Below, one piece after another: positions 43,774 to 62,871 of a DNA stretch of 64,000 nucleotides. A program made the translations under genes and the position numbers. The notes under the pieces were generated by a model. That model was not told where the DNA came from. It searched no databases and saw nothing but the letters and a program-made list of their open reading frames with translations. The stretch comes from an uncultured Planctomycetota bacterium. Its GTDB lineage: Bacteria; Planctomycetota; Planctomycetia; Isosphaerales; Isosphaeraceae. Position 1 is the stretch's first letter. Every line of letters starts with the position of its first letter. The stretch covers positions 401,457-465,456 of the forward strand of contig CAWJTV010000039.1 in the NCBI GenBank assembly GCA_963845755.1, read 5' to 3'.

Positions 43774-43871
43774 ACAGCGGCGTGCCACCGTCTAACGAGG
43801 CGATGCAGCGGACCCGCCTGTCGGCGGGCCTCTGATCTATGGCGTTAGCCGTCGTTCGAGGAGCAGTGGGC

Positions 43872-44303
43872 ATGGCTTCTGAAGTCGAGGAGGTCATGGC
43901 GGAACCCGAGTACTTCTTTCGCTTCGGTGCCACGCTCCGGATCTTTGGGGACATCGGAGACTTGGAGGCGATCACAGCCGAACTTGGTATCGTGCCAACT
44001 CATGCGCATCGGAGGGACGAGAAGCTTCTGCCGACCTCTCCCAGGGGCTACGAGCATGACATGTGGTCCTACTCCGCTCCGGTACCCCGGGGTCGTCCGC
44101 TGCAAGTCCATCTGGAATCGCTCTGGCTCGCCGTTCGGCCGCACGTCGCCTATCTGAAAGGCTTGAAGGAGCGCCTGTCCGTCAACGTGTATTGCAGCTA
44201 CCATACGAATTGCAGCACCGGAGGCTTCGAGGTTGATCACCGAGCCCTGATCATCTTCGCCGAGCTTGAGGTGCCGTTCGGCGTGTCCGTCGGCATAGCG
44301 TGA
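43872..44303 (+). CDS. Cassette: DUF4279-like protein, copy 1
   Basis: ATLRIFG...ITAELGIVPT...WSYS...HLESL. Confidence 0.75.
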   Translation: MASEVEEVMAEPEYFFRFGATLRIFGDIGDLEAITAELGIVPTHAHRRDEKLLPTSPRGYEHDMWSYSAPVPRGRPLQVHLESLWLAVRPHVAYLKGLKERLSVNVYCSYHTNCSTGGFEVDHRALIIFAELEVPFGVSVGIA

Positions 44304-44386
44304 CACGTCTAACGAGGCGATGCAGCGGACCCGCCTGCGGCGGGCCGCTGATCTTGGACGTTAGGCGGCAGTGTGGAGGCGACGCT

Positions 44387-44653
44387 ATGCGGTCGGCCAC
44401 CCGATCTTCTCTATTCGTGGTCGCGTGGTCGGTCGGGCTGGCCTCGCGCTACGCGAACCGCGGTGATCCTCAGTGGGCCACGAAGTTGCGGGTGGCGTGC
44501 CTGTTCTTCGTCCTCGGAGGAGCCTTGCTCTGGTCGATCCAGAAGATCTCCAAGCGGCCGTGGCCTTGGTTCGTAGAAGGCATCGCACTACCGTTCGTCG
44601 CCGGCGGCTTGATCTACGGGATCGTCGCCGTACGCAACGCGTTCAGGGGATAG
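44387..44653 (+). CDS. Cassette: small membrane protein
   Basis: GGAGG RBS, three hydrophobic segments. Confidence 0.6.
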   Translation: MRSATRSSLFVVAWSVGLASRYANRGDPQWATKLRVACLFFVLGGALLWSIQKISKRPWPWFVEGIALPFVAGGLIYGIVAVRNAFRG

Positions 44654-44755
44654 CTTTGTCTAACAATGCGATGCAGCGGACCCGCTGTGCGGGCCGCTGA
44701 TCTTGGGCGTTAGGCCGCAGAAGGCATACGACTCGTTGAGGCATCAGCACCCGAT

Positions 44756-45346
44756 ATGCTCGAATTGCGATGGGAAGGACCATTCGGATGGCCGGGCCTT
44801 GATCCGGTGGAGCTGCTGACCTCTCTGGCCGACTCTCCGGTGGCGAGTTCCTCTGGCGTTTACCTCTGGACCGTGGAGTATCTCGACGGGTTCCTTATCT
44901 ACGCTGCTGGGATTACTCGGCGGCCGTTCGTGAGAAGGTTTCGCGAACACACCCGCGCTTACCGAGCCGGGATCTACACTCTTTTCGACATGACGTCCCT
45001 CAAACGGGGCGTCCGAGAAGAGCTCTGGCACGGCTTCTGGATGAGGAGGCGAACGGCGGAGAAACAAAGCGAATACGAGAGGCGTCGCGACGAGCTTCGC
45101 GCGGCTGCCGAACTGCAACTATCGAGCTACCGGGTCTTCGTTGCGCCGCTCGGGCCGGTGCCGCGGTTGCTGGAACGTATTGAAGCGTCGATCATGAATG
45201 CGCTTTATTGTGCCCCGGCACCGGCGTCCGACATTCCAGACCGCGGTATGGCATTGGCTCCGCGTTGGCGGACAGAAGAGGCGATAATCGTGCGGAATGT
45301 CACAGGTTTTCTACTTCATGCTCTCCCCGACGAGTTCGTGGTGTAA
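44756..45346 (+). CDS. Cassette: GIY-YIG-like putative nuclease
   Basis: SGVYLW...IYAAGIT...RRFREH...IE. Confidence 0.6.
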   Translation: MLELRWEGPFGWPGLDPVELLTSLADSPVASSSGVYLWTVEYLDGFLIYAAGITRRPFVRRFREHTRAYRAGIYTLFDMTSLKRGVREELWHGFWMRRRTAEKQSEYERRRDELRAAAELQLSSYRVFVAPLGPVPRLLERIEASIMNALYCAPAPASDIPDRGMALAPRWRTEEAIIVRNVTGFLLHALPDEFVV

Positions 45347-45419
45347 AGCTATAATCATGGCCTTCTATGAACACGCTGAGGTCAAGGCCCCCGACTAATT
45401 TTTTCTCGGCGCACCTGCG

Positions 45420-45790
45420 GGCGCGGACAGCGATCGCTCCGAGTCCGACAGCGTGTGTCCTGGCTCCCCGTTTGCGGGGAGCCAGGACGCACGCTGTTTC
45501 TCGTTCTCCAGACAACGCCGGTGGTCCTGCGATCGACACTCTCCTTGTCCTTGCCGAAGAACTCCCGAGACCGCGGCTGGTGGCTTCGTCACGCGCGTCG
45601 CGCCTTCCAGGAGGCCGCGACCACCTTCTCTCCGTGTCGATCCTCACTCAAGGGACCGAGCACCCGTTACTGTGTTCGTCCGCGGACGACTCCGAAGCCA
45701 GGTGTGGGGACAAACCCATCTAACAAACGGTCGGCTGCCGCCAACCAGACGTGCTCGCCCGGTCGCCCCCTCCAGCCCGGTACGCTCGTG
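45420..45790 (-). ncRNA. Candidate bridge/seek RNA in the 3' non-coding end of the IS110 (boundaries approximate; copy 2 about 57860-58230)
   Basis: Nested stems (gatcgacac/gtgtcgatc, gaccgagcac/gtgctcgcccggtc, ggtgg/ccacc, agcc/ggct) with loops matching target and donor; long terminal hairpin at 45448-45497. Confidence 0.65.
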
Positions 45791-45855
45791 ATTCTTCCCT
45801 CAAGGCCCCTGGTTTCATTTTAGTAATAATGTTATTACATGAACAAATTCAGTGG

Positions 45856-47042
45856 TCATTCGACCTTTGCTGATGCAGGCAGTCGGCCGTTGAGCTTCTT
45901 CTCCCACGGCGTGAATTCCGCCCCCTCGGGCACCTCGCCCTGCTCCAGGTATCGCCAGAGCGCGATCAACAACTTGCGAGCCAGTGCCACGATCCCCACC
46001 TTCCGCGCCCGCGCGTTGCCCTCGCCGAACCGACGCTGATACCACTGGCTCAAGGCGCTATTGGGCTGCCAGTGCAGCCAGCCCCAGGCGATCTCCACCG
46101 CCATCCACCGCAGACGGCGATTGCCCGCCTTGCTGATCCCTTGCTCACGACGGCTGTCGCCGCTGTCGTACGGCGTCGGCGCGAACCCGGCCAGGCTCGC
46201 CAGCTCGCGGCGATTCTTGATCGCTCGCCAGCCGAAGAACTCGCGGACGAACAGCGTCGCGCTCATCGGGCCGATCGCCTTGAGGTTGAGCAAGAGCCGC
46301 AGCTTCTCGACGTCGGCCGTCGCGTCGTCGCGGAACGCACGCCTCTGGGCGTTCTCCAGGTCGCGCGCCTGGCGGTCCACCAAAGTCCAGCGGTCGAACT
46401 CGCGGAGGATGCGGGCACTCAGCTCGGCCGGGACCGGCCTCCCATCCCATTGGCGAAGTTGGCCGAGGCGTTCCGGCAACTGGTCATCGACCTCGACATC
46501 GAGGCCGAGGTTGGCGAGCAGGCCTTTTATGCGATTGGAGTGCTCGGTGCGCTGACCCTTGACGGCGATCAGCTCGCGGTGGGGCTGACGGCGATCTTCG
46601 TCGTCGGGCGTGGGGATGCGGACGACGCTCCAGAGCTTGTGCTCGCCGCCGTGATAGCGGATCAACATCGTCAGGAGCTTGCCGACATCGAGACGATCGC
46701 TCTTGGCGCGACGCGCGCGGCGGTTGACCTCGATGCTGGCGGCGTCGACGACCAGGTTCGTGACGGCGTGGTGTTGGAGATAGCGATGGAGCCAGAAGCC
46801 GTCGCGGCCGGCCTCGTAGCAGGAGAGCACGGGGGCGTCACCGGGGAGGGCGAACCGGTGCCTGGCGAGAGGATCTCGCGCTGAAGGGCGTCGAGATCGC
46901 GAGCGGCGATGGTGCGGAGCCGCGGCTTCTGGGCCATGGCGGTGGTGAAGGCGAGGTTCCAGGAGGTCCAGCCGAGTTCGAACGCGAGGTAGAGCGTGTT
47001 CGAGCCGGTGGTGATAGGATGAAGGTCGTGGGTCGCTGACAT
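45856..47042 (-). CDS. IS110 transposase/recombinase (indel near 46865)
   Basis: YLAFELG, SCYEAG, AKSDRLD (RuvC DEDD-type, first D replaced by E), PYDSGDS, ISKAGN, ALARKL. Confidence 0.95.
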
Positions 47043-47272
47043 GGTGAGACTCCGTGGTTGAGAGGGATTTGGTGAAAGACCTCTTCTGAGGAGCTTACCG
47101 TCAGCGGCTCACAGTTTTCTGCCCGGTCGCTCCGGACATAGTATCTAACAATGCGATGCAGCGGACCCGCTGCGCGGGCCGCTGATCTTGGTCGTTAGGC
47201 AGAGGCAGAGGACCTCACCGGCGGCGGTGCGGGAAGTTCCGATTTGCCCTGGCTGGCGGGAGGACGAGCCCA

Positions 47273-48250
47273 ATGGACCTGACCATGGAGCGATGGGAAG
47301 GCGCCGCGGATTCCGAACGTCGGACCATCGCAGTTCGCGTGGCGAGGGAATTGCCGGCCGGCTTCGAATTTGACTGTATCCGGCGCTGTCACATGGGGGA
47401 CCAACAGCATCATGTCGCCCTCTTCCGGCAGGAAACCTCTATTTTCGTGCTAATTCCTGGCGGACCGGTGGTTCTCGGGTATGATGTGGAGCGACCGTGG
47501 CAACCCACCTCCGACGAGCTGGAGAGCTGGCAGGAAGACCGCGACGATTGGTTCGGGCCGGACAACACGATCCAGGAGTCCATCGCCGCGGTCACATTGC
47601 GGCCCCGTCGGGTCGAATTCACTCCCTTCCTCATCGAGACGAGTCCCGAGGAATTCGGCCGGGAACTGGTCGGACTCGACGATCCCATCGTACAGACGAT
47701 AATCCGACACGCTCGGGCCATACCCCACGGTGTCCGAGATGGGGAGGACGCGAGTCCGCAGGATGGAGGATGGATCGATCTTGGCCGAGCGGCACATTGA
47801 CCGCGCCCGGACTCACGCGGACCTGGCGGAGCAACTGGCGGCAGCCGGGTTCCGGTTCCCGACTTCGGACGAGTGGGAATATGCTTGCGGCGCGGGGCGA
47901 CGACACTCTTCCGATGGGGTGACCACGTCCCGTGTAACTGGCCGGACCGGCTGGCCGGCGGGTATGGGGATTCGCCAGGAGGCTTCCCCTATGATTGGGA
48001 TCCCACAGGGGAACCCAATGCCTTCGGAATTGTGATCGGGTTCAACTCCTACAAGAACGAACTGGTCGCGCAAATCGGCACGACACGCGGCGGGGATGGC
48101 GGCGATGCCGCCTGCGGCGGGGCGAGCCAATTCATCCAGTGGCTGAGGTACGCCACGGCCTACTTCGAAGAGCGGTCCTGTCGATTCGACCCGGCGAAGC
48201 CAATCGCGATCGGGTTCACTGTTGGTCGCCGGGTGCTGGCCTTGTCGTGA
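47273..48250 (+). CDS. Cassette: FGE-sulfatase (SUMF1)-like domain protein; frameshifted
   Basis: FVLIPGG..VLGYD, GFRFPTSDEWEYAC, TTLFRWG, PNAFG. Confidence 0.7.
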
Positions 48251-48341
48251 TCCACGGTCGGGTGGCTCGCCTAACCCGGCGTTGCAGCGGACCCGCCTGG
48301 CGGCGGGTCCGCTGAACTTGTCGTTAGCCGGCGGAGGCGTC

Positions 48342-48698
48342 ATGCCCGAAGGCGATGTCACTCAGCCTGGGCGTATTGCCTTCGTCCACTCGATCCGCGA
48401 CCTCCTGCGCGAGATCCGCGAGCGGCCGGCCCTCTGGCTCAACGCCAAGACGCTGACCGGCCTGAAGTGCCTGCTCATGGGCTACGAGATCGCCTGCGCT
48501 GTACACGACATTGCCGAGACGGAGCAGCTTCCCGACGACGTCCCCTGGCAGGGCTTCAGCGATTGGCTGGCGAAGCGATATGATAAAGGCGGTTGGACGG
48601 TCGATTGGCATTGGCTGCTGGTGGAGCACTCGCGATCGCAGGAAGAGGCATTCGACCGCTTCTTCGATCTGCTTGCCGAGTACGAATCCGGCGGCTAA
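48342..48698 (+). CDS. Cassette: conserved hypothetical helical protein
   Basis: LLREIRERPALWL...GY...FFDLLAEY; stop codon inside attC R''. Confidence 0.7.
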   Translation: MPEGDVTQPGRIAFVHSIRDLLREIRERPALWLNAKTLTGLKCLLMGYEIACAVHDIAETEQLPDDVPWQGFSDWLAKRYDKGGWTVDWHWLLVEHSRSQEEAFDRFFDLLAEYESGG

Positions 48699-48760
48699 CA
48701 AAGCGATGCAGCGGACCCGCTGCGCGGGCCGCTGATCTTTATCGTTAGACTGGTGGGGCC

Positions 48761-49097
48761 ATGAGCGTCACCGACGACCTCGACCGGCTGTTCCCGGGCC
48801 ACCGCTCGCCCGAGCGGGCTGCCGATTGGGAGGCGCTCGAAGCAGCGGCTTGCCTACGGGCAGTCCGTCACTGGTACGGTCGTCGTCAAATCCCCGTTCG
48901 GGGCGTGGGTCGACCTCGGCGTCGGTTTCCCTGCCCTGCTGGAGATCATCGTCATTGTGGGCCTGACGCCCGAGAAATATCGTGCGGGTGACTGGTGCCC
49001 TGTCGGTAGCGAAGTCTCGGCGTTTGTCGGTGGATTCCGCGATGACTCTCATCAGATAGGGCTGTGGCAGGTGCCGGTCGGCCATGGCCGCGTCTAA
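48761..49097 (+). CDS. Cassette: S1/OB-fold domain protein; frameshifted
   Basis: VTGTVVVKSPFGAWVDLG...PVGSEVSAFV; stop in R''. Confidence 0.6.
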
Positions 49098-49174
49098 CTC
49101 CGCGTTGCAGTGGACCCGCCTGCGGCGGGCCGCTGAACTTTCCGTTAGGAGGCATTCGTCTCAGGTCGTATACA

Positions 49175-49615
49175 ATGCGGTGGGTGATTCGCGTAGTTGC
49201 TTCCGCAGTCGCTGTCGCAAGCCTCGGGGCTGGCTGGTGCCTTTACCAAGGTATCTCCGCGTCGCTACATGCGGAGTACGGCTTACACGCCACGTTGCTC
49301 ACAGTCGAGTTGCTGCGGGATTATGTACTCGAGCACGACGGCCAATGGCCGCGTTCCTGGGCCGACCTCGAGGGTCTACCTCCGCGGAAACGGGCGATGT
49401 ACGAGTGGCCGATGGATTCGCGGGAGGTGCAACAGTATGTCGCGGTTGACTTCTCTGCCGATCCACAACGGTTGGTGAAGCAGAGTGTTGATGAGTTCGA
49501 AGCCGTGCGTCCGATCGGACCCTATTACCTTTTCAAGCACTATGGTTCGGTTGAGGCCCTCCTTAAAGCCGTTCGTGAGACGGAGAACCAGAGCGAGGGT
49601 CGCGGATCACCATAA
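49175..49615 (+). CDS. Cassette: membrane-anchored hypothetical protein
   Basis: N-terminal TM; YVLEHDGQWPRSWADL. Confidence 0.65.
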   Translation: MRWVIRVVASAVAVASLGAGWCLYQGISASLHAEYGLHATLLTVELLRDYVLEHDGQWPRSWADLEGLPPRKRAMYEWPMDSREVQQYVAVDFSADPQRLVKQSVDEFEAVRPIGPYYLFKHYGSVEALLKAVRETENQSEGRGSP

Positions 49616-49705
49616 TCGGGGCGCGAGCTAACCCAGCGTTGCAGCGGACCCGCCTGCGGCGGGCCGCTGAACTTTTCGTTAGCCGTCGTTCGAGGAGCAG
49701 TGGGC

Positions 49706-50137
49706 ATGGCTTCTGAAGTCGAGGAGGTCATGGCGGAACCCGAGTACTTCTTTCGCTTCGGTGCCACGCTCCGGATCTTTGGGGACATCGGAGACTTGGA
49801 GGCGATCACAGCCGAACTTGGTATCGTGCCAACTCATGCGCATCGGAGGGACGAGAAGCTTCTGCCGACCTCTCCCAGGGGCTACGAGCATGACATGTGG
49901 TCCTACTCCGCTCCGGTACCCCGGGGTCGTCCGCTGCAAGTCCATCTGGAATCGCTCTGGCTCGCCGTTCGGCCGCACGTCGCCTATCTGAAAGGCTTGA
50001 AGGAGCGCCTGTCCGTCAACGTGTATTGCAGCTACCATACGAATTGCAGCACCGGAGGCTTCGAGGTTGATCACCGAGCCCTGATCATCTTCGCCGAGCT
50101 TGAGGTGCCGTTCGGCGTGTCCGTCGGCATAGCGTGA
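49706..50137 (+). CDS. Cassette: DUF4279-like protein, copy 2
   Basis: Identical translation to 43872-44303. Confidence 0.75.
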   Translation: MASEVEEVMAEPEYFFRFGATLRIFGDIGDLEAITAELGIVPTHAHRRDEKLLPTSPRGYEHDMWSYSAPVPRGRPLQVHLESLWLAVRPHVAYLKGLKERLSVNVYCSYHTNCSTGGFEVDHRALIIFAELEVPFGVSVGIA

Positions 50138-50212
50138 CACGTCTAACGAGGCGATGCAGCGGACCCGCCTGCGGCGGGCCGCTGATCTTGGACGTTAGCC
50201 AGCGGAGGGCTC

Positions 50213-50494
50213 ATGGCCGACGATCTTGTGCACCTCCTGCTCGACATCAAGCTCGCCGGCGACGGGTTCGCATCGCCGGACGAGTTTGATCTCCGGGACC
50301 GGCTCGTTGAGCGGATCGAGCGACTGGGCATCGGTGAGGTCGGCGGCTATGGCTCGGGAGTCGGCGGCATGGACATCTCCGTGCTCGTCGCTGATGAAGC
50401 TGAAGGTCGGGGGCGGCTGAGTCGACTCATGCAGGAGGTCGCGCCGGATGCTCGCTTCACCATCGAGGTACTTGCAGACGAGGATGACGGCTAA
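50213..50494 (+). CDS. Cassette: small acidic hypothetical protein
   Basis: GGAGG RBS; stop in R''. Confidence 0.7.
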   Translation: MADDLVHLLLDIKLAGDGFASPDEFDLRDRLVERIERLGIGEVGGYGSGVGGMDISVLVADEAEGRGRLSRLMQEVAPDARFTIEVLADEDDG

Positions 50495-50587
50495 CGAGGC
50501 GATGCAGCGGACCCGCCTGTCGGCGGGCCGCTGATCTATGGCGTTAGCCGGCCTGCATTCCGAACGAGGTGTGACCGAGGCCGGCAT

Positions 50588-51202
50588 ATGAGGAGGCCAC
50601 GTATTTCGATCGCCGGACTCATGGTGTTTGTCGTGTTCCTCGGCATCACCTTCGCCGCGTTGCGCACCGATACGGAATCCTGGTCACGTGTGATGCTGAG
50701 CCTCGCGATCGCCTCAAACGGCGTTGCCCTGATCGGCCGCCTCTCCACTCGAAGCCCCAATGAGTTGGCCTGGACCGGCTATTTAATCTTCGGGGCAGGC
50801 TACCTCGTGCTCTGCATCGGCCCATGGTGTGACGAGCACATCATGCCGCACCTCGTGACAACGCCACTTATTGATGATCATTATACGAAGCTGCAGTATA
50901 CTCCTACGCATGCCGGAGAGCGGGTCTGGACAACGGATGGGCCCGGTCGAGGGTTCGCGGGAGGCGAGACCTTCGGCGATATCGGCGCCGAGACGGCCAG
51001 TTTCAATGTCGCACACGATCGTGGGACCACGTCTCGATACAATGCGACTCAACTCCGCGCCATCAGCCCGGATGGCTATCGACGACTTTGCCATTCCACC
51101 ATATCCTTCTGGACGGGCCTTCTCGGAGCGCTGCTGGCACGTTGTCTCCGAGGGATCAATCACGATAACTCGATGCGTAGAGCGGCCTCCGGGTCCGCCT
51201 AA
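50588..51202 (+). CDS. Cassette: membrane protein with planctomycete-type RISIAGLM N-terminus
   Basis: MRRPRISIAGLMVFVVFLG; stop in R''. Confidence 0.7.
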   Translation: MRRPRISIAGLMVFVVFLGITFAALRTDTESWSRVMLSLAIASNGVALIGRLSTRSPNELAWTGYLIFGAGYLVLCIGPWCDEHIMPHLVTTPLIDDHYTKLQYTPTHAGERVWTTDGPGRGFAGGETFGDIGAETASFNVAHDRGTTSRYNATQLRAISPDGYRRLCHSTISFWTGLLGALLARCLRGINHDNSMRRAASGSA

Positions 51203-51291
51203 CCGGCGGTTGCAGCGGACTCGCTCCGCGGGCCGCTGAACCTTCACGTTAGACGGCGCTTATACGTGGCATATCCTGGGGACCGACGGCC

Positions 51292-51552
51292 ATGTACCCG
51301 GCTCTCTTCGCATCCTTGGTCGTGCTCACGTGCCTCCTGGGCCTGGCCTGCGCCGGCGTCAGCCTACTCGGAGTCCTCGCGATAACCCGTCGGTGCTTCA
51401 TCCGAGGGCGCGGGCTCCGGGCTGTCGTTCTCTCCGGGCCCGAGGCCGTCAAGGCGGGTGCAATCCTCATCCCGGCAGGGCTCGTCCTGGCGACGCCCTT
51501 CCTCGCCTTCGGGGTGTGGGGTATCATCGTCCTACTGGGCGGCAGGCTGTGA
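51292..51552 (+). CDS. Cassette: two-TM small protein
   Basis: Hydrophobic ORF between attC sites. Confidence 0.6.
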   Translation: MYPALFASLVVLTCLLGLACAGVSLLGVLAITRRCFIRGRGLRAVVLSGPEAVKAGAILIPAGLVLATPFLAFGVWGIIVLLGGRL

Positions 51553-51647
51553 ACGATCGTCGCCTAACGAGGCGATCCAGCGGACCCGCTCCGCGGGCCG
51601 CTGATCTTGGTCATTAGGCCGCGTCGCGCGAACCGTGAGGCGACTCC

Positions 51648-52290
51648 ATGATTGACCTGGTTCCTTCCGAGTACGACGATCCCGACTTTCTGCAACTGAC
51701 GCAGCGGATCGTCGAATGGCGCCGTCAAGACACTTCGGGTGCCTGAAGTCTACCTGGTGCACATAGACAATTGGTTTGATTACAAGTGGCTGGGATGGTG
51801 GAGCTGGAAACTCAAAGAACTGAAGGAGCTGTGCGTTCCCCCCTTTAACCCAAACCGTGTCGTCTCAGAGCAGCACTTCATTTGGGACGCGAATAGCTCG
51901 CTATGGATGTCCGCGGGTCGAGGAAAGCCTCTCCACCTTCGTCAGCCCGGCCGATCCGCGTCGTACGCTCAGACGCTCGATCGATTCTCGAAATCCGCAG
52001 CCTTCATTTGGTACAGTGGGAATACGGTTACAAACCGGGCGGGAAGCGCGATGCTGTACCTATCGGGCGCGGAGGGCTACTCGTGGTATGCCTCGTTCCT
52101 CAAGAAGGAAAAGCACTGGAGGGTTGACGACGAGTGCCGAATTACCAGGAGGGAACTGGTGTCATTCGAAGCCAGCGGTCGCGAAATGGAACTGGTTCGA
52201 ACGTCGTCTTGGTCTCTGAGCAGCGAGACCGAGACAAACCGTCAGGACCTAACCTGCGGTTGCAGCGGACCCGCTGCGCGGGTCCGCTGA
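51648..52290 (+). CDS. Cassette: conserved hypothetical protein (IDNWFDxKWL motif); indel near 51715
   Basis: EVYLVHIDNWFDYKWLGW...VPPFNPNRV. Confidence 0.6.
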
Positions 52291-52321
52291 ACCTTTTCGT
52301 TAGGCGGCTACCATCGGCGCC

Positions 52322-52672
52322 ATGACCTTGATCCTCGGCTACCTGGCATTCGCACTGGGGGCTTTCCTCAGCCTGCTCAACTTCTACCTCAGCTTCGTCC
52401 GCGTCCCGCTGCTACGCGCCCTCTGCCGGCCGTCGCGGTGGGTCTCGGGCTTCCCGCTCGTTGGTTCGCTCCTACTGGTCGCCTCGGCGGCACTGCTGTG
52501 GAGGGTGCGGTGGTTGGCCCTTTGCGCTTTGGGCGTCGCGGCGCTGGACACCGGCGGGTTACACTGGTTCCTTGGCGTCCTACTCTGGATGGCGATCTCT
52601 GGTCGATCCGAGGGCGGAGACGCCGCCGAACATGGCGATGCAGCGGACCCCGCTGCGGCGCGGGGCCGCTGA
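52322..52672 (+). CDS. Cassette: membrane protein
   Basis: LNFYLSFVR...SGFPLVGS...LDTGGLHWF. Confidence 0.65.
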   Translation: MTLILGYLAFALGAFLSLLNFYLSFVRVPLLRALCRPSRWVSGFPLVGSLLLVASAALLWRVRWLALCALGVAALDTGGLHWFLGVLLWMAISGRSEGGDAAEHGDAADPAAARGR

Positions 52673-52703
52673 TCTTGAGCGGTAGGCAGCGAGAGCAGCA
52701 CCG

Positions 52704-53423
52704 GTGGACGAGGTCATCATCCTATATCGCCCGGTCGGTCCGAAGGAGCTTGCGCTCATCGAGGCATCCGGTTGGACAGCCTTCCCACCGCGCTTACCCG
52801 AACAGCCGATCTTCTACCCTGTGCTCAACGAAGAATACGCCGCCTGGATCTCGCGGAGATGGAACGTGAGGGATTACGGGTCGGGCTTCGTCACGAGGTT
52901 CGCGGTCCGATCAGAGTTCGCGAGGCGTTATGTCGTACAGCGCGTCGGGGCCGGCCATGCCGAAGAACTTTGGGTACCCGCCGAAGAGTTGGCGGAATTC
53001 AATCGGAATATTGGACACTCCTCGCTCATCACCACCTCGGTTCGAGACTGTTCCCTACGCCGAAGGCGTTAGACAGCACAGCCCAGGGTCGCCGCAAGGC
53101 GCACCCTGGGAAGCGATCCGCCCTCAGAACACCTGTACCCCAACGGGGTTCCACAACCGAGTCCGCCCCATCGTCCTCAGGGTGCGCCTGCGGCGACCCT
53201 GGGCTGTGTTGTGTAACGCCTTCGGCGTAAGGACACGATGGTGGATAGTCTCCCCGCGATTCCCAGGGTGCGCCTGCGGCGACCCTGGGCTGTGTTGTGT
53301 AACGCCTTCGGCGTAAGGATCGCAACCCAATCCCACGGGTGGCTCCAGGAACCCGGTGGCGTTCGGCGAGGAGTGTCGAATATTGTGGGCTGCATCGAGG
53401 TCATCGCCGAGTTCCATACCTAA
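52704..53423 (+). pseudogene. Cassette: 'ADP-ribosylation/crystallin J1'-type small protein interrupted by a MITE
   Basis: LYRPVGPKEL...FPPRLPEQPIFYPVLNEEYA; C-terminus VGCIEVIAEFHT* resumes after 53385. Confidence 0.75.
53014..53377. mobile_element. 364 bp non-autonomous element (MITE) with 12 bp TIR and 8 bp TSD, containing REP-like hairpins
   Basis: GACACTCCTCGC...GCGAGGAGTGTC flanked by GAATATTG at 53006-53013 and 53378-53385. Confidence 0.9.
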
Positions 53424-53500
53424 CAAGGCGATGCAGCGGACCCGCTTCGCGGGCCGCTGAATTTGGGCGTTAGGCGGTGGTGATTTGACGGGAGGGTCAA

Positions 53501-53990
53501 TTGGACGAGAGCCGCTTCTGGTCGATGATTGAGACCGCGTGGGGTGCGGCTGGCGGCAAGAGCCAGTCTCGTCAGCGGCTCGCCGAGGGTCGGCTCTCGG
53601 AGGACCGTGCCTACGCGCCTGGAGGAGGCGTTGGACGAAGTCATTCCGGCGCTTCGGGACCAGCTCTCCGGCTTGCCCGCCGACGAATTGCTGGAGTTCG
53701 ACCGCATCTTGGAGCGGAAGCTGTACGACATTGACCGGGCCGACATTCATAATCGGACGGATGGGTCTGACGACGGGTTCCTCTACTGCCGTGGGTTCAT
53801 CGTCGCGATGGGCCGGGGCTACTACGAGGCAGTCCGATCGAATCCCGTCATCGCCATTCCGGACGCGGAGTGCGAGGAGATGTGCTACCTGTCGTGGCAC
53901 ATGTACCACGAACGATTCGGCGAAGTGCTTCCATCAGGCATTTCCCGGGAGACGCAGTCCAACTCGGTGGGGTGGCCATCAGACGCCTAA
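53501..53990 (+). CDS. Cassette: DUF4240-like protein (indel near 53615)
   Basis: MDESRFWSMIE...GSDDGFLYCRGFIVAMGR..YE. Confidence 0.8.
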
Positions 53991-54083
53991 CACGACATTC
54001 CAGCGGATCCGCCTACGGCGGGCCGCTGAATTTAGGCGTCAGGCGTCAGATCCCGATTCCGGCATTTGGCATAGGTGTTATCG

Positions 54084-54670
54084 ATGTCCGCACGCGGCTC
54101 TTTCGTCACGAATCCACTCTCTCGGTCGTCGAAATTGATGGCCGAATCGACACGCCGAATCCCTCTGTTTTGGTTGTCGTTCCTTTCGACGGAGGACATC
54201 GATTGCGCCGAGCACCCGGGACAATTCAAGATCGACCGGAAGCAGGCGATCGACAGGGCCTCAAACAATCTTCCCTTTTCTTGAAAATCTTCCCAGAAGT
54301 CGGCGTGTTTGGGGAAATGGCCCGCAGCTTTCTCGAGTTACTCCGATCGCAACGGGCCAAGGCCGTCGGAATCGAGGTCATTGAACTCTTGGAGGAGTTG
54401 CAGGACGGGGAGGGTCACGAGGGGATGCCGAAGCTCCGAAATGCTGTGGAGGCTATAGAGCGCCAAGACGCTGATTATTCGCTGACCGTGCCACCGCGAA
54501 CCGTCAAGAATCCCTTCACCCGCGAGGATACGCAGCTCAAGGAACAGAGGTTTTCCTCTACGCGGGAGATGCTGCTCTACATTTGCTCGCTTCGACCCGA
54601 GGATCTGAACTCAAAAAAGAGAGAGGAAGTACAACATGCGATTGTCGGTTACATTTGGGAGTGGGAGTAA
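54084..54670 (+). CDS. Cassette: hypothetical protein, paralog of 60619-61206; frameshifted
   Basis: Shared RIPLFWLSFLSTEDID and PKLR.AVEAIER...VG.IWEWE. Confidence 0.7.
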
Positions 54671-54769
54671 ACGGTGTAAACCAAATCTGAAGCCTCGCCT
54701 AACCCGCGGTTGCAGCGGACCCGCTGCGCGGGCCGCTGAACCTTGGCGTTAGGCCGAGAAGGGAGCACG

Positions 54770-55228
54770 ATGAAACGGCAGCCGATCACCCTGAATGGCC
54801 TCACCTCCGACGAAGTTCTGGCGTTGCCTGATGACCTCATCGACTCCCAGATCCTGTGCGGCGAGCCGCTGGTGTTCCGCGTCGGCACGGCGGATATCCT
54901 CGGCCGGTTCTGGGTAGCCGACGGGTCGCTGGTGCTGGAGTTGGGCCACATCGATGGGGGCGGCGAGGGAGTGCTGCCAACCATCTCTGAGCTGGCCAAG
55001 CGCTATGCACAACGTCGGGGATTGGTAGCGCTCGACTGGCGGGTTCATGCGCTCAATTGCGCACGGCCCAACCTCAAGCTACGTCGTGTGCTGGAGCGGC
55101 GTGGGTTCGTGGTCGCCGATGTGGCAGGCACCGGCCCCTGCTACCATCAAGTTCAGCCGGTGCAATCAGGACGCGCATTTACGGAACCTAACGAAGCATT
55201 GCAGCCGACCCGCTGGGCGGGCCGCTGA
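54770..55228 (+). CDS. Cassette: hypothetical protein, possibly GNAT-like fold
   Basis: HIDGGGEG...N..LRRVLERRGF. Confidence 0.55.
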   Translation: MKRQPITLNGLTSDEVLALPDDLIDSQILCGEPLVFRVGTADILGRFWVADGSLVLELGHIDGGGEGVLPTISELAKRYAQRRGLVALDWRVHALNCARPNLKLRRVLERRGFVVADVAGTGPCYHQVQPVQSGRAFTEPNEALQPTRWAGR

Positions 55229-55314
55229 ATTTGGGCGTTAGGAGGCGCGGGGTTGAGGTGATTGCGCCGGGTCTCACATTGCGACCCTTCGCACTCCCGC
55301 GGTAGGATGGGAGT

Positions 55315-55616
55315 ATGCTGACGCCAATATTTCTTGACGTCGATCCGCGTACGCTGCACCTGCCGCCCTCATCACGCTGGGGCGCGACCCTGGTAAGCTG
55401 CAGCGGCAGATCGCGCGATTCGGGAGGTCGCCGGTGGGCATGCCCCCACCGTGGGTCTACCGGGGCTTCGATGGAGCCCTGGTGATCTCTGATGGCGTAA
55501 CGCGGGCGACGCGTGTCGCCAAGCTCCTGCCCGGCGTGCTCAAACGCGTCGAGGTCATCAGCGATCAGAAGACGCCCGTCGGCCACTATCCTACAGTAGG
55601 AGATCGCCTGCCATGA
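55315..55616 (+). CDS. Two-gene cassette, gene 1: ParB/sulfiredoxin-like small protein (indel near 55386)
   Basis: FLDVDPRTLHLP...GMPPPWV...VISDGVTRATR. Confidence 0.6.
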
Positions 55617-55828
55617 TCGATCCGGTGCGGAAAGACGTGTTCCATGCCTTGGAGGAGTTAAGCGAGTCTTGTCCGGAATACCGGTTCGGCCAGATGATCG
55701 CCAACTTGACGATGCTGGCGCGGGGGGATGCCGAAGGTGCCCTATGGGATCTGGAGGATGAGGAATTGCTCTCTGCGGCGCGGAAGCATTTGTCGGACTG
55801 GAACGAGCGGCACGCCTCAGTCGCCTAA
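55613..55828 (+). CDS. Two-gene cassette, gene 2: small acidic helical protein
   Basis: ATGA overlap; PEYRFGQMI...WDLEDEELL; stop in R''. Confidence 0.7.
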   Translation: MIDPVRKDVFHALEELSESCPEYRFGQMIANLTMLARGDAEGALWDLEDEELLSAARKHLSDWNERHASVA

Positions 55829-55970
55829 CCCGGCGTTGCAGCGGACCCGCGCGGCGGGCCGCTGATCTTTGGAGTCAGCCGGCTCCGCTGCCGAGGGCGT
55901 CTCGCGCGTCCCTCCGGTGTCGGCGGCCTGCGGTCCCGCCCGAGCCCGCCGAAGCGATCCGGCCACCCGC

Positions 55971-55999
55971 TTGCTAAGAGCCCTCGCGCGCGGCATGCT
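55971..55999 (+). promoter_or_regulatory. Candidate promoter in a gene-less cassette (55874-56177)
   Basis: TTGCTA-17 nt-CATGCT; no credible + strand ORF between the two attC sites. Confidence 0.4.
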
Positions 56000-56202
56000 G
56001 GTGTTATAGGTCCACGACCCCGCGGGCGCCGTCCGCGGCCGGAGCACCGGAGGTGCGGCGCGGGGGCCATCGCGGCGGGGGTAGGCCGTCTCACACGTCG
56101 CTCCAGCGGATCCGGCCCGCTGCCGCGTCTCGTGACATCGGAGCTGTGCCCGGCGGGCCGGTCCGGCGATCTGGTTTGTTATTTGCTTCGAGGTCAGGTG
56201 AG

Positions 56203-56745
56203 ATGTCCGCACGCACCTACATGGTTTCCTTACAGTCCCTGGATCCCATCAGAAGAGCGATCAGCTCGAAGGATCGCGATCTATTGGACGCATTGCTTCC
56301 GGCTGTATCTGAGAATTTCCGATCCGCCGCCGAGGGGATGATCATGGGCCCTCCTCCTGCGAAGGAACCCGGATGCTGGGGTTTTCTGGTTGAACCACTC
56401 GCCCAACACTTCGGCTTGTCCCCTCGCCGCTTGCCACTCGACGATTGGAAGCACTACTACGTCTGGAATGATTACCGTTCGATTGCAGATCCTCACTTGT
56501 CAGGACAGGGGAAGAAGCTCTTGGAATTCATCGATTCCGGGAGGCCGTTCGTTGGTACCAGTATGGATCACGACGGAAGTATGTTCGCCTGGCTAACTGC
56601 CGCTGAGGCCAAGAGCCTCTTGGATGAATTGACCGCAATTGATGCCGCGACGTTTGATGAGTTGGACGAGTTTCATGAAGAGTTGATCGAATCGTTGCAG
56701 CAAACCGTAGATCGCGGCGCAGACCTGTTCGTCGGCGCTTGCTGA
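56203..56745 (+). CDS. Cassette: acidic conserved hypothetical protein
   Basis: IRRAISSKD..LL; WLTAAE; GADLFV. Confidence 0.65.
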   Translation: MSARTYMVSLQSLDPIRRAISSKDRDLLDALLPAVSENFRSAAEGMIMGPPPAKEPGCWGFLVEPLAQHFGLSPRRLPLDDWKHYYVWNDYRSIADPHLSGQGKKLLEFIDSGRPFVGTSMDHDGSMFAWLTAAEAKSLLDELTAIDAATFDELDEFHEELIESLQQTVDRGADLFVGAC

Positions 56746-57044
56746 CCGCAACCAACACCGTGTTGCAGCAGACGCCGGCCCGCTCGACAGGCACCAAACG
56801 GCGGACCCGGCTAACGAGGCGATGCAGCGGACCCGCCTGTCGGCGGGCCGCTGATCTTGATCGTTAGAGTCGTCCTGCGTAGGATCCCTGCCGCAGTGCG
56901 CGCATCTGGGGATTCCGAATTCCGGATTCGCGATTCCGGATTCCCGGATCATTCCCCTTCGGGAATCCGGAATCGCGAATCGGGAATCCCGATGGGGTTG
57001 CGGCCGAAGGTCGCGTTAGGGGTTGTCGTGCGGAGGCGTTCGCG

Positions 57045-57839
57045 ATGTCCACTGCCGATGAAGCGCTGCTGGCTGCATTCGACGGGCACCACGTCGAGGG
57101 CGTCCGCGCCGCGCTGGATGCGGGAGCTGACCCGAGTTCCCCGATTCGAGGCAAGCCGCCCATCTATTGGCTGCTCGAAGAGTACATGCGATCCGATCGA
57201 CTCCCGGCTTGCCTCCGTTTACTGTTTGAGCGCGGGGCCGCGCTCGACGACCCGGCCGTCGTGCCCGTACTGCTGAATGATCCGGAAACGATCAGGGCTG
57301 CTGTCAGGGCAACCCCGTCACTCCTCGAGCACCGTACCACCCTGACCTCATCGTTTACGTCGCTGGTCGGTGTATCCCTGCTCCACGTGGCCGCCGAATA
57401 CGGGCACTTGGATGCCGCACGCGCCCTGGTCGAAGCCGGTGTCGATGTGAACGCGACGGCCGCCGTCGATGAGGATGGCCTCAACGGGCACACCCCGCTG
57501 TTCCACGTGGTGAACTCGCTCGGGAACCGGTCCGAGCCGATCATGCGCTTGCTTCTGGCCGCCGGCGCCAAGCCAGACGTGCGTCTGACCGGAATCTCGT
57601 GGGGGAAGGGGTACCCTTGGGAGACGACGTTCTTCGACGTCACGCCCATCTCGTACGCCCAGATGGGGCTCCTTCCACAGGTACACAGGAGCGAGCGAGA
57701 GATCTACGCAAATATTAGACTTCTGTTGGAAACCGCGGGCCGGAAAGTGCCGTCCCTGGCCAATGTTCCCAATCGCTACCTGCAACCTAAGTCAAAGATC
57801 TTCTTCTATGAACACGCTGAGGTCAAGGCCCCCGACTAA
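57045..57839 (+). CDS. Cassette: ankyrin-repeat protein; original stop removed by the IS110 insertion
   Basis: SLLHVAAEYGHLDAARALVEAGVDVNA, GHTPLFH. Confidence 0.85.
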   Translation: MSTADEALLAAFDGHHVEGVRAALDAGADPSSPIRGKPPIYWLLEEYMRSDRLPACLRLLFERGAALDDPAVVPVLLNDPETIRAAVRATPSLLEHRTTLTSSFTSLVGVSLLHVAAEYGHLDAARALVEAGVDVNATAAVDEDGLNGHTPLFHVVNSLGNRSEPIMRLLLAAGAKPDVRLTGISWGKGYPWETTFFDVTPISYAQMGLLPQVHRSEREIYANIRLLLETAGRKVPSLANVPNRYLQPKSKIFFYEHAEVKAPD

Positions 57840-59584
57840 TTTTTTCTGGGCGCCCTGCGGGGCGCGGACAGCGATCGCTCCGAGTCCGACAGCGTGTGTC
57901 CTGGCTCCCCGTTTGCGGGGAGCCAGGACACACGCTGTTTCTCGTTCTCCAGACAACGCCGGTGGTCCTGCGATCGACACTCTCCTTGTCCTTGCCGAAG
58001 AACTCCCGAGACCGCGGCTGGTGGCTTCGTCACGCGCGTTGCGCCTTCCAGGAGGCCGCGACCACCTTCTCTCCGTGTCGATCCTCACTCAAGGGACCGA
58101 GCACCCGTTACTGTGTTCGTCCGCGGACGACTCCGAAGCCAGGTGTGGGGACAAACCCATCTAACAAACGGTCGGCTGCCGCCAACCAGACGTGCTCGCC
58201 CGGTCGCCCCCTCCAGCCCGGTACGCTCGTGATTCTTCCCTCAAGGCCCCTGGTTTCATTTTAGTAATAATGTTATTACATGAACAAATTCAGTGGTCAT
58301 TCGACCTTTGCTGATGCAGGCAGTCGGCCGTTGAGCTTCTTCTCCCACGGCGTGAATTCCGCCCCCTCGGGCACCTCGCCCTGCTCCAGGTATCGCCAGA
58401 GCGCGATCAACAACTTGCGAGCCAGTGCCACGATCCCCACCTTGCGCCTGCGCGTTGCCCTCGCCGAACCGACGCTGATACCACTGGCTCAAGGCGCTAT
58501 TGGGCTGCCAGTGCAGCCAGCCCCAGGCGATCTCCACCGCCATCCACCGCAGACGGCGATTGCCCGCCTTGCTGATCCCTTGCTCACGACGGCTGTCGCC
58601 GCTGTCGTACGGCGTCGGCGCCAACCCGGCCAGGCTCGCCAGCTCGCGGCGATTCTTGATCGCTCGCCAGCCGAAGAACTCGCGGACGAACAGCGTCGCG
58701 CTCATCGGGCCGATCGCCTTGAGGTTGAGCAAGAGCCGCAGCTTCTCGACGTCGGCCGTCGCGTCGTCGCGGAACGCACGCCTCTGGGCGTTCTCCAGGT
58801 CGTGCGCCTGGCGGTCCACCAAAGTCCAGCGGTCGAACTCGCGGAGGATGCGGGCACTCAGCTCGGCCGGGACCGGCCTCCCATCCCATTGGCGAAGTTG
58901 GCCGAGGCGTTCCGGCAACTGGTCATCGACCTCGACATCGAGGCCGAGGTTGGCGAGCAGGCCTTTTATGCGATTGGAGTGCTCGGTGCGCTGACCCTTG
59001 ACGGCGATCAGCTCGCGGTGGGGCTGACGGCGATCTTCGTCGTCGGGCGTGGGGATGCGGACGACGCTCCAGAGCTTGTGCTCGCCGCCGTGATAGCGGA
59101 TCAACATCGTCAGGAGCTTGCCGACATCGAGACGATCGCTCTTGGCGCGACGCGCGCGGCGGTTGACCTCGATGCTGGCGGCGTTAACGACCAGGTTCGT
59201 GACGGCGTGGTGTTGGAGATAGCGATGGAGCCAGAAGCCGTCGCGGCCGGCCTCGTAGCAGGAGAGCACGGGGGCGTCACCGGGGAGGGCGAACCGGTGC
59301 CTGGCGCAGAGGATCTCGCGCTGAAGGGCGTCGAGATCGCGAGCGGCGATGGTGCGGAGCCGCGGCTTCTGGGCCATGGCGGTGGTGAAGGCGAGGTTCC
59401 AGGAGGTCCAGCCGAGTTCGAACGCGAGGTAGAGCGTGTTCGAGCCGGTGGTGATAGGATGAAGGTCGTGGGTCGCTGACATGGTGAGACTCCGTGGTTG
59501 AGAGGGATTTGGTGAAAGACCTCTTCTGAGGAGCTTACCGTCAGCGGCTCACAGTTTTCTGCCCGGTCGCTCCGGACATAGTAT
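57805..59584 (-). mobile_element. IS110-family element, copy 2, inserted at the attC R'' CT core (CT at 57803-57804 and 59585-59586)
   Basis: Same ends as copy 1; removal restores TTCTAAC and the upstream stop codon. Confidence 0.92.
58296..59482 (-). CDS. IS110 transposase/recombinase (indel near 58445)
   Basis: Same motifs as copy 1. Confidence 0.95.
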
Positions 59585-59668
59585 CTAACGAGGCGATGCA
59601 GCGGACCCGCCTGACAGCGGGCCGCTGATCTGGGTCTTTAGGCGGTATTCCGATTGCACGGGGGCGAC

Positions 59669-60031
59669 ATGAAGGTCGGTGATGACCCATACTTCACGGC
59701 GACTGATAAGGCCAAGTCGCATCCGCCCCGCGGCAAAGCGCTGCTCGTGGTGCGAATCCCTTGGTGCCTCTCCTGGCTCGCCGTGGCGTTCCTGTCCATG
59801 CAGGTGTTCGTCTCACCGATCATCTACTCGTCGCGGCTGGCGACCGGGGCCTACATCATGATGGAGCTCGGGGCCGGGGCGCTGGCTGCTATCGGAGCCT
59901 CCGGCGTGCTCGTCGCTCGACTCGTGCGGTCAAGGGGCTCGTCCGATCTGTACACGAGGAGGCTGGTTTGGTCTATACTGAGGGGCCTGCTTGTCGTCTT
60001 CATTATATTGACGATGATCGAGGTCGCCTGA
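59669..60031 (+). CDS. Cassette: three-TM membrane protein
   Basis: Hydrophobic ORF between attC sites. Confidence 0.6.
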   Translation: MKVGDDPYFTATDKAKSHPPRGKALLVVRIPWCLSWLAVAFLSMQVFVSPIIYSSRLATGAYIMMELGAGALAAIGASGVLVARLVRSRGSSDLYTRRLVWSILRGLLVVFIILTMIEVA

Positions 60032-60117
60032 GGGAGTGCCGGGCTAACGAAGCATTCCAGCGGACCCCACTGCGCGGGGCCGCTGATCTGGGTCGTTGGA
60101 CGGCACGATCGAATCCC

Positions 60118-60516
60118 ATGTTAGGACAAGTCTTCGGATGTACTTCTTGCGACTTCGGTTTCTCGTCCGGGTGGTCCCACCATGCCGGGGGGCAACTGAT
60201 GGTGTGCCGTCACTGCGCGACCCACTTCGTCCTCGGCGGTGGGCAATCATGCTGGGGCGAAACAACGGGCGAGCAACTCCAGCTCTTTCGATCCGATGAC
60301 GAGAAGGATGTCCCGACTGGCGTGCGAGTCAGGGTCCAGGTCCGTGTCGTCCCCGACAGCGAGGACTGGGACGGCATCTCATACCTGGATCTCCCCGACC
60401 TCGCCTGCCCGCATTGCAACCGTCCCGGCGCTTTGGTTCAATCGTTCGTGGTAGGTCATACGTGTCCCGCGTGTCATCAGGGCACCATTATGGTGACGAG
60501 CTCCTGTATCTATTGA
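60118..60516 (+). CDS. Cassette: multi-CxxC zinc-ribbon protein
   Basis: CTSC, CRHC, CPHC, CPAC. Confidence 0.7.
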   Translation: MLGQVFGCTSCDFGFSSGWSHHAGGQLMVCRHCATHFVLGGGQSCWGETTGEQLQLFRSDDEKDVPTGVRVRVQVRVVPDSEDWDGISYLDLPDLACPHCNRPGALVQSFVVGHTCPACHQGTIMVTSSCIY

Positions 60517-60618
60517 GCGCGGTCTAACAAGGCGATGCAGCGGACCCGCTGCGCGGACCGCTGATCTCGAGGGTTAGGCGTCAGGTCCCGATTCCGACCT
60601 TTGGCATAGGCGTTATCA

Positions 60619-61206
60619 ATGTCCGCCCGCGGCTCTTTCGTCACGAATCCAGGCGCTCGGTCGTCGAAATTACTGACCGAGGCGACGAATCGGATCCCTC
60701 TGTTTTGGTTGTCGTTCCTCTCGACGGAGGACATCGATCGCGCCGAGCACGCGGGACAATTCAGGATGGACCGGGTGCGGTCAATCGAACGGGCCTCAAA
60801 CAGCCTTCCCTTTTTCTTGGAACTCTTCCCGGATGTCAACGTGTTCGAGGGAACGGCCGGCAACCTTCTCAAGTTGGTCAGATCCAAAAGGGCCAAGACC
60901 ATTGGAATCGAGATCATTGAACTGTTGGAGGAGTTGCAGGACTCGGAGGGCAACGAGGGGATGCCGAAGCTCCGAACCGCTGTGGAGGCCATCGAGAGGC
61001 GAGACGCTGGCTATTCGCTGACCATTCCAGCGCGAACAATCAAGAATCCCTTCACCCACGAGGATATGCATCTCAAGGAACGGAGGTTTGGCTCTACGAG
61101 GGAGATGCTGCTCTCCATATGCTCGCATCGAACTGAGGATCTGCAATCAAGAAAGAAAGAGGAAGTTCAAGATGCGATTGTCGGTCGGATCTGGGAGTGG
61201 GAGTAA
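60619..61206 (+). CDS. Cassette: hypothetical protein, paralog of 54084-54670
   Basis: Intact 195 aa ORF. Confidence 0.75.
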   Translation: MSARGSFVTNPGARSSKLLTEATNRIPLFWLSFLSTEDIDRAEHAGQFRMDRVRSIERASNSLPFFLELFPDVNVFEGTAGNLLKLVRSKRAKTIGIEIIELLEELQDSEGNEGMPKLRTAVEAIERRDAGYSLTIPARTIKNPFTHEDMHLKERRFGSTREMLLSICSHRTEDLQSRKKEEVQDAIVGRIWEWE

Positions 61207-61297
61207 TCGGTGCAAACCAAACCGGAAGCCGCGCCTAACCCCTCATTGCAGCGGCCCCGCTTCGCGGGCCGCTGAATTCATCCGCTAGGGGGCTCAA

Positions 61298-61612: not shown

Positions 61613-61691
61613 CGTCCCCTAACCCGGCGTTGCAGCGGACCCGCCTGGGGCGGGCCGCCAAACCTTTTCGTTAGACGGCGGAGGATTCGAC

Positions 61692-62135: not shown

Positions 62136-62216
62136 AGGCATCACTCGCTTAACCTTCGGTTGCAGCGGACCCGCCTGAGGCGGGCCGCCAAACCTTTTCG
62201 TTAGACGGCGAGGTCG

Positions 62217-62860: not shown

Positions 62861-62871
62861 GTCGGGCGCCT

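Follow-up and report, generated by a model that had tools for sequence, protein, structure and literature searches.

A probable guide-RNA gene downstream of the transposase gene of an IS110-family insertion sequence in integron attC sites of an uncultured Planctomycetota bacterium

We analysed a 64,000-nt stretch of DNA from an uncultured Planctomycetota bacterium of the Isosphaeraceae (assembly GCA_963845755.1, contig CAWJTV010000039.1, positions 401,457 to 465,456; hereafter "the window", with coordinates counted from its first letter) and found that a non-coding region just 3' of a transposase gene very probably encodes the guide RNA of an IS110-family insertion sequence (IS) of the RNA-guided kind, whose insertion target is the R'' box in the attC sites of integrons. 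This finding is carried by the ends of the IS, by a consensus fold with covariation and by four guides which vary together with the flanks or the ends of the element. The element and its site comprise the following features.

45362-47144, minus strand: insertion sequence, 1783 bp with a single copy of the AG core counted.
47145-47200, plus strand: attC site interrupted by the IS, fitting an attC pattern repeated at 20 places in the window.
57803-59584, minus strand: second IS copy, 99% identical, occupying another attC site with the same orientation.

We set the ends from a comparison of six copies found in this one 14.3-Mb assembly, which are 92-100% identical and have differing flanks. Common to the six are a left junction in which ...GTTAG is followed by ATACTATG (ATACTATGTCCGG) and a right junction in which ...CATAGAAG (TTCATAGAAG) is followed by R, and the DNA past the right end is unrelated. 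In the copy at 45362-47144 the left end begins with ATACTATG at 47144, and AG at 45363-45362 comes directly after the right end, ...TTCATAGA at 45364 (CATAGAAG being 45362-45369), with an AG dinucleotide present at both junctions. Taking out the IS and one AG in silico leaves GCCTAAC on the plus strand, and because this is the canonical R'' box, the IS lies inside R'' and antisense to the cassettes. The interrupted site retains the R'' remainder CTAAC (47145-47149) and R' GTTAGGC (47194-47200), and the AG core of the target is at 47146-47145 on the minus strand. Attachment-site-like sequence of the attC kind surrounds every one of the 5 copies whose left end is intact. The two full copies in the window are found in an R'' box on the minus strand, with the cassettes on the plus strand. 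The cassette array itself (43792-62149) comprises 20 or more attC sites, which are all of one type (…CTAAC…GCAGCGGACCCGC…GTTAGGC) and in one orientation; 2 of the 20 hold the IS.

We aligned 17 related non-coding regions from 13 genomes (alignment A1) and folded them with RNAalifold. The consensus fold has 43 pairs, with 93.3% of cells paired across the 17 sequences. It contains 56 double-change cells, compared with 20.4 ± 3.5 in shuffles, none of 500 shuffles reached its score, and slid controls were paired in at most 51% of cells. The same helices were obtained when the window RNA was folded as a single sequence. The RNA gene and its helices are as follows.

45571-45790, minus strand: conserved core of the guide (bridge/seek) RNA gene, with a 5' box CACGAGCGUACC (45779-45790) and helices P1-P6.
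45772-45780 with 45571-45580, minus strand: P1, 5' strand CCGGGCUGG with CCAGCCGCGG; 90.3% paired, two pairs changed on both sides.
45761-45770 with 45706-45717, minus strand: P2, 5' strand GGGGGCGACC with GGGUUUGUCCCC; 98.8% paired.
45729-45746, minus strand: P3 hairpin, GGUUGGC GGCA GCCGACC; three pairs changed on both sides.
45693-45700 with 45581-45588, minus strand: P4, 5' strand UGGCUUCG with CGAAGCCA, closing the donor multiloop.
45678-45687, minus strand: P5 hairpin of the consensus fold, GUCCGCGGAC.
45634-45663, minus strand: P6 hairpin, GUGCUCGGUCC ... GGAUCGACAC.

Compensatory change was seen in P3, where the two strongest pairs, 58:71 and 59:70, were each changed on both sides in 9 of the 17 sequences, and in the inner helix of P6, all six pairs of which were changed on both sides and 94-98% paired. 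In P2 we found A-U replacements at two pairs, in separate lineages; P4 was 93.3% paired and none of its pairs had changed on both sides. Four guides are located in this fold, the target guides on opposite sides of the P2/P3 internal loop and the donor guides in the multiloop closed by P4.

45720-45727, minus strand: left target guide (LTG), UUUGUUAG, lining the P2/P3 loop on its 3' side.
45747-45753, minus strand: right target guide (RTG), CACGUCU, lining the P2/P3 loop on its 5' side.
45625-45631, minus strand: left donor guide (LDG), AGAGAAG, agreeing with the right end plus core ATAGAAG at 6 of 7 positions.
45666-45671, minus strand: right donor guide (RDG), AGUAAC, between P5 and P6.

The LTG is identical to the left target plus the AG core, and would therefore pair with the other DNA strand; against its own flank ATTGTTAG it agrees at 7 of 8 positions. 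This match is more than chance, since the window contains TTGTTAGA 5 times where 0.25 occurrences would be expected, namely in two guide copies, one occupied junction and two empty attC sites. We looked for the same correspondence in relatives of the same order, where the non-coding region was present in 14 of 121 genomes. There the LTG and the left flank were found to change together (UUGGUUAG with GGTTAG, UGGGUCAG with GGGTCAG, UCGGACAG with GGACAG, UGAGUCAG with GAGTCAG and UUAUUCAG with TTATTCAG), and over the six non-core bases cognate pairs shared 4.29 (n = 24), compared with 2.70 (n = 297) for non-cognate ones. When a transposase alignment was used to scan more widely, at least 587 relatives were obtained, from which 78 loci were kept, with records naming Planctomycetota, Chloroflexota, Acidobacteriota, Gemmatimonadota, Burkholderiales and others. 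The RNA profile matched 52 of the 78, at a position just 3' of the transposase gene and on its strand. The motif CCG-N6-RG-RNGG was found at the expected place in 33 of the 52 RNA loci, with 22 different words; the 19 loci left out comprise 15 without the motif and 4 with the motif elsewhere. After a further two loci with too little upstream DNA and one beginning inside the gene were removed, 30 remained. The LTG 7-mer was found within 240 nt upstream of the gene exactly in 21 of these 30 loci and with at most one mismatch in all 30, and it abuts the left end in the loci inspected. Non-cognate guides, differing at three or more positions, were found exactly in 3 of 587 pairings.

The RTG, CACGUCU, is complementary to AGACGTG, the core plus the right target. 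In a fixed register before P3, and over 6 non-core bases, cognate pairs scored 3.03/6 (n = 34) and non-cognate pairs 1.84/6 (n = 1086); scores of at least 5 were reached by 6 of the 34 cognate and 13 of the 1086 non-cognate pairs. It should be noted that the P3-based anchor for this register failed in a few rows (L022, L024, L031/L019, L050 and L074), which were kept and thus lowered the cognate mean. Clear cases are G013 (CGGUCU:AGACCG) and L036 (UAAACGCC:GGCGTTTA). Two empty attC sites, at 44309 and 50143, carry AGACGTG and match the RTG at 7 of 7 positions. In contigs from soil runs, differences from the window cluster in the target-guide windows, at 45725/45726 and 45743-45759. At attC the right target half is the variable tail of the neighbouring cassette, and recognition may therefore rest mostly on the LTG and the core.

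For the donor guides, the RDG AGUAAC is complementary to the left end G-ATACT at 5 of 6 positions. Across phyla the RDG and the left end change together, as AUUAUU/GATAAT, AGCAUU/GATGCT, AGGAUU/GATCCT, GAAUU/GATTC and UUGU/ACAA. The string ACGG-A(G/U)AGAAG, which includes the LDG, is invariant across alignment A1. Beyond it, a right end ATAGGAG corresponds to an RNA AUAGGAG in L057, L080, L083 and L084, that is, an A-to-G change in both, in two lineages.

Some sister elements were also found beside copies of their own targets. For L042 (G026, 170-260) and L022 (G046, left flank) the targets are short genomic repeats, with an empty target copy beside the occupied one: in G026 an empty TTATTCAG joined to GCGTCAC lies about 60 nt upstream of the insertion, and in G046 GGGGTCAG is present in tandem. 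Three elements of G039 (L033, L025 and L037) have an identical 18-nt left flank and differing right flanks, as would be seen if they target a repeat, or if the real boundary on the left is further out.

The observations above suggest a mechanism modelled on characterised systems (PMC11208160, PMC11187229), from which the transcription of the RNA, its binding by the transposase, the circular intermediate and the chemistry are inferred. The guide RNA (about 45571-45790, minus strand) would form a three-way junction closed by P1. On the P2-P3 arm, CACGUCU would pair with the core and right target on the top strand, and UUUGUUAG with the left target and core on the bottom strand; in the multiloop of the P4 arm, AGUAAC would pair with the left end, and AGAGAAG would correspond to the right end plus core. 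The RNA might start from an AT-rich stretch and then be bound by the DEDD transposase. The element would be excised as a circle in which right end, AG and left end are joined, and the RNA and transposase would bring this circular donor junction together with the attC target (GTT-AG-RC), and the strands would be exchanged at the AG core. Two sequence features may supply promoters.

45816-45846, minus strand: AT-rich stretch (TTGTTC...TAAAAT), seen in the sequence between the stop codon and the RNA.
45380-45385, minus strand: TTGACC, a -35-like hexamer near the right end.

The AT-rich stretch is a possible promoter of the guide RNA; a consensus promoter scan gave no site satisfying its rule. When the circle junction is written out, TTGACC lies 17 nt from GATACT (the core G plus the left end) as a promoter-like pair, and CTTGAC precedes the right end in related loci too, so that the circle may form a junction promoter. 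Prosseda reportedly described, in 2006, a junction promoter in this IS family.

The transposase gene was found in two pieces.

46671-47042, minus strand: N-terminal piece of the transposase open reading frame (ORF), 123 aa.
45856-46830, minus strand: C-terminal piece of the transposase ORF, 324 aa, matching PF02371 (E = 2.3e-15).

The gene of the second copy (58256-59482) matches the NCBIfam model NF033542, 'IS110 family RNA-guided transposase', with 145.4 bits (cut-off 140). In the assembly the frame of the 45362-47144 copy is broken near 46830-46880. Contigs of all four soil-metagenome runs carry one extra C after 46867, and the frameshift is missing there; intact 395-aa transposase genes are present in a related genome at 86% DNA identity. 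The frame breaks may be assembly errors or recent decay. If the assembly carries indel errors, cassette ORFs would be hit as well. In copies L005 and L006 (same genome, contig C18), 167 bp are missing between two GAGGGGGCG repeats, one in the 3' end of the transposase gene and the other in the 5' strand of P2; the equivalent in the window is 45749-45915, and the deletion takes out the gene end, the AT-rich stretch and, from the RNA, the 5' strand of P1 as well as that of P2.

Several observations weigh against the reading of this region as a guide-RNA gene. The LDG is one mismatch off the element's own right end, and the RDG scores, with G-U allowed, differ by a small margin over a high baseline (cognate 5.00/6, n = 23; non-cognate 4.16/6, n = 440) because the left ends are alike. 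For the copies in this genome, the RTG fits the right flank at only 1-3 of 6 non-core positions; pairing on the right may be of little importance at attC, or our RTG assignment may be wrong for this lineage. The relatives do not form independent samples, and since several loci share one genome, the 30 loci with matching LTGs are not 30 separate events. The stability of the fold is unremarkable (z = -1.28 for 45565-45792); the whole non-coding region has z = -4.5, which is driven by a hairpin at 45451-45494. A search of 44000-49000 with all Rfam families at E ≤ 1 gave a chance mir-160 match on the same hairpin (45455-45490) as its sole match. The sequencing runs listed for this DNA include no RNA run, and the guide-RNA transcript and its ends are predictions. 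Finally, all six assembly copies have a disrupted or deleted transposase frame, with the disruption differing between copies, and the 45362-47144 copy may be inactive.

We weighed these points together with three other explanations. A preliminary description of this DNA, made from the sequence alone, had placed a candidate bridge RNA at 45531-45765 with two simple internal loops, one holding UUUGUUAG and ACCU as target guides and the other holding AGAGAAG and GUCU as donor guides within a stem of GAUCGACAC and GUGUCGAUC. We give almost no credence to this architecture as drawn. All of its strings exist on the minus strand as stated (UUUGUUAG at 45720-45727, ACCU at 45700-45703, AGAGAAG at 45625-45631, GAUCGACAC at 45634-45642, GUGUCGAUC at 45531-45539 and GUCU within 45565-45574), CTAACAAA at 48695-48702 is the perfect complement of UUUGUUAG, the 9-bp stem of GAUCGACAC and GUGUCGAUC is perfect in this copy, and UGGG/CCCA is paired in 83.6% of cells. 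However, the three stems drawn are paired in only 66% of cells over the 17 sequences, and their covariation (0.114, compared with 0.104 when shuffled) is reached by 106 of 500 shuffles. Two of the AGCC/GGCU pairs are kept in only 7 of 17 sequences and the donor stem is 57% paired in relatives. The strings AGCC, UGGG...CCCA and GAUCGACAC are instead the 3' strands of the covarying P3, of P2 and of P6, so that the drawn stems compete with helices which show compensatory change, and the loop which the target guides face each other across in the consensus fold is not one bounded by AGCC/GGCU and UGGG/CCCA. ACCU falls at the P2-P4 junction, and we rejected it as the RTG as it lacks a cognate signal (longest complementary run 3.19 with cognate and 3.04 with non-cognate flanks); GUCU, which overlaps the 3' strand of P1, was rejected as the RDG as it is unconserved in alignment A1 although the left end is conserved. 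The proposed interval loses the 5' strands of P1 and P2 (45761-45780) and includes 40 nt (45531-45570) which are unconserved in distant relatives. Of the checks that had been suggested, the minimum-free-energy fold of 45531-45765 was no steadier than shuffles (z = +0.42), and in the consensus fold all four guides are in unpaired loops (internal loop or multiloop). Two of the four guides first proposed, UUUGUUAG as the LTG and AGAGAAG as the LDG (with its one mismatch), are thus right; the other two and all three stems need correcting. The central proposal, that a guide RNA encoded 3' of the coding sequence sets attC specificity, is supported by the guide/flank covariation, the covarying fold and the 52 of 78 loci.

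The region could also act as DNA, as a recombination or transposase-binding site, single-stranded or duplex, which holds internal copies of the target and ends in the manner of IS200/IS605 guide sequences. A structured single DNA strand would likewise show stem covariation and guide-to-flank matches, and the RNA transcript is a predicted one. We nevertheless consider this highly improbable: many of the retained pairs read G-U only when taken on the transposase-sense strand (33:92 is G-U in 9 of 17 sequences and 106:233 is U-G in 9 of 17), which fits RNA, the region is outside the recombining ends, and the protein family has an RNA guide which is described as proven biochemically and structurally (PMC11208160, PMC11187229, PMC11208158). 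A more serious alternative, although still an unlikely one, is that the RNA gene is a relic, with dead copies and guide matches which record past activity. All six assembly copies are damaged in or beside the transposase gene, by one frameshift, by a double one or by the loss of 167 bp, and contigs of the four soil runs, checked for IS joints, contained neither a circle junction nor an empty-site form. On the other side, the frameshift of the 45362-47144 copy is absent in 4 of 4 soil runs (one extra C at 46867), the copies are 92-99% identical and are found in different attC sites, the RNA core is intact and folds like the consensus, intact 395-aa genes exist in a related genome and the assembly may hold indel errors. 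A guide-RNA gene of an attC-homing IS110-family element is therefore the explanation we prefer.

The remaining features of the element and of the window are listed here.

45451-45494: long perfect hairpin of 20 bp, between the RNA core and the right end.
62868-63215, minus strand: third IS copy, truncated to the segment which runs from the LTG core G (GAUGGG...) to the right end.
63506-64000: open-ended ORF of 164 aa, beside the truncated copy.

The non-coding region is 495 nt long from the stop codon (45856) to the right end (45364), and a further 102 nt (47043-47144) are non-coding at the left end. The tips share only a 5-bp inverted repeat, CTATG/CATAG; the best inverted match of the ends is 17/23, gapped, and starts 30 nt inside the left end. 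The hairpin at 45451-45494 is terminator-like on the plus strand only, that is, for transcription coming into the IS from the right-end side, and it is kept in relatives with differing stem sequences. The truncated copy begins exactly at the core G of its own LTG (…GTATC followed by GATGGG…), and it is conceivable that recombination took place at the guide gene itself, since the guide DNA mimics the target (TTTGTTAG followed by A). The contig ends at 64000, and the DNA adjoining this copy is partly repeated elsewhere in the genome. A stretch 98% identical to the ORF at 63506-64000 is found on contig C6; a Pfam search of this ORF gave no family, and it may be another mobile element.

Taken as a family, these elements offer a case of natural guide reprogramming, in which one transposase family keeps its scaffold and four guide windows track the insertion site and the ends. 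Sister elements with 58-80% protein identity carry at least 20 other guide words, with matching sites. Guide positions can thus be read from sequence alone for a branch without an experimental member. The cassette arrays of soil Planctomycetota are invaded at the R'' box by elements which we take to be RNA-guided, and this should disable the attC sites for cassette excision. For engineering, the family provides many natural scaffold/guide pairs with an AG core, with the known principle unchanged.

We compared the element with known systems. Its transposase is 24% identical to that of IS5075 over 221 residues, with an alignment within residues 113-365 only (24-25%), and only the C-terminal domain aligns with the IS621 and ISCro4 chains (E = 1e-3 and 2e-4). 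Plasmid records searched with the transposase gave no match above 60% identity; the best matches were in Burkholderiales, at 51% or less, and among the matches listed, those from enterobacteria were at most 26% identical. A search of plasmids for an ISKpn4-like reference element gave two Klebsiella matches (H41 and H49), the contexts of which are not integrons.

IS621, as described in PMC11208160 and PMC11208158, likewise has four guides (LTG, RTG, LDG and RDG), each with a 2-nt core. In the account of PMC11208160 its left guides pair with the bottom strand and its right guides with the top strand, as proposed here, and it also has a DEDD recombinase with PF02371. However, in the same account the IS621 RNA is encoded 5' of the gene, its LTG precedes its RTG, there are two simple internal loops and the core is CT. 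In our element the RNA follows the gene on its 3' side, the RTG precedes the LTG, a multiloop holds the donor guides and the core is AG. The predicted bridge RNAs of the IS1111 elements ISPa11, ISAzs32 and ISCARN28 are closer in that the RNA is in the right end (PMC11208160). Durrant et al. (2024, PMC11208160) describe many IS1111 orthologues with donor-binding nucleotides in a multiloop and not in a simple internal loop, and the multiloop donor site of our consensus fold resembles these by description.

The seekRNAs of attC-targeting IS1111 elements were shown experimentally in 2024 (Siddiquee et al.; PMC11187229), those of ISKpn4 and ISPst6 being reported there to co-purify with the transposase and that of ISPa25 being predicted. 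Like these three, as described in that paper, the element here would derive its guide RNA from a long non-coding region downstream of the transposase gene, with two short matches to the two target strands which overlap at the insertion point. The match to the top strand is 5' of that to the bottom strand and the target is one end of attC, as for ISKpn4 and ISPst6 (PMC11187229), and the copies lie in the R'' box on the minus strand, as in the description of the IS1111-attC group (ISPst6, ISPa21 and ISKpn4) in PMC3001079. Our element differs in having a transposase of 395 aa, compared with 330-350 aa for IS1111 (PMC11187229). It may also differ in its inverted repeats: IS1111 in the sense of Partridge & Hall and of PMC11187229 is defined by sub-terminal repeats of 7-17 bp, and here the tips share 5 bp, besides the gapped 17/23 match. 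It differs from ISKpn4 and ISPst6 in its host lineage, which is environmental, with relatives in Planctomycetota, Chloroflexota, Acidobacteriota and Gemmatimonadota. The label "IS1111-type" given in the preliminary description therefore fits the architecture (the 3' non-coding region, the guide order and the multiloop donor site) and does not fit the transposase, at 395 aa and 24% identity to IS5075. It is quite possible, although we hold this more loosely than the guide-RNA assignment and stop short of calling it probable, that the element belongs to a separate, widespread environmental clade and not to the gammaproteobacterial IS1111-attC group, a clade with a 395-aa transposase, a three-way-junction RNA and attC homing by natural reprogramming of a 5-6 nt guide, in which recognition is essentially one-sided (LTG plus core). 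Homing to attC by a 3'-encoded RNA is already known, and the element described here probably comes to it from a different, environmental lineage.

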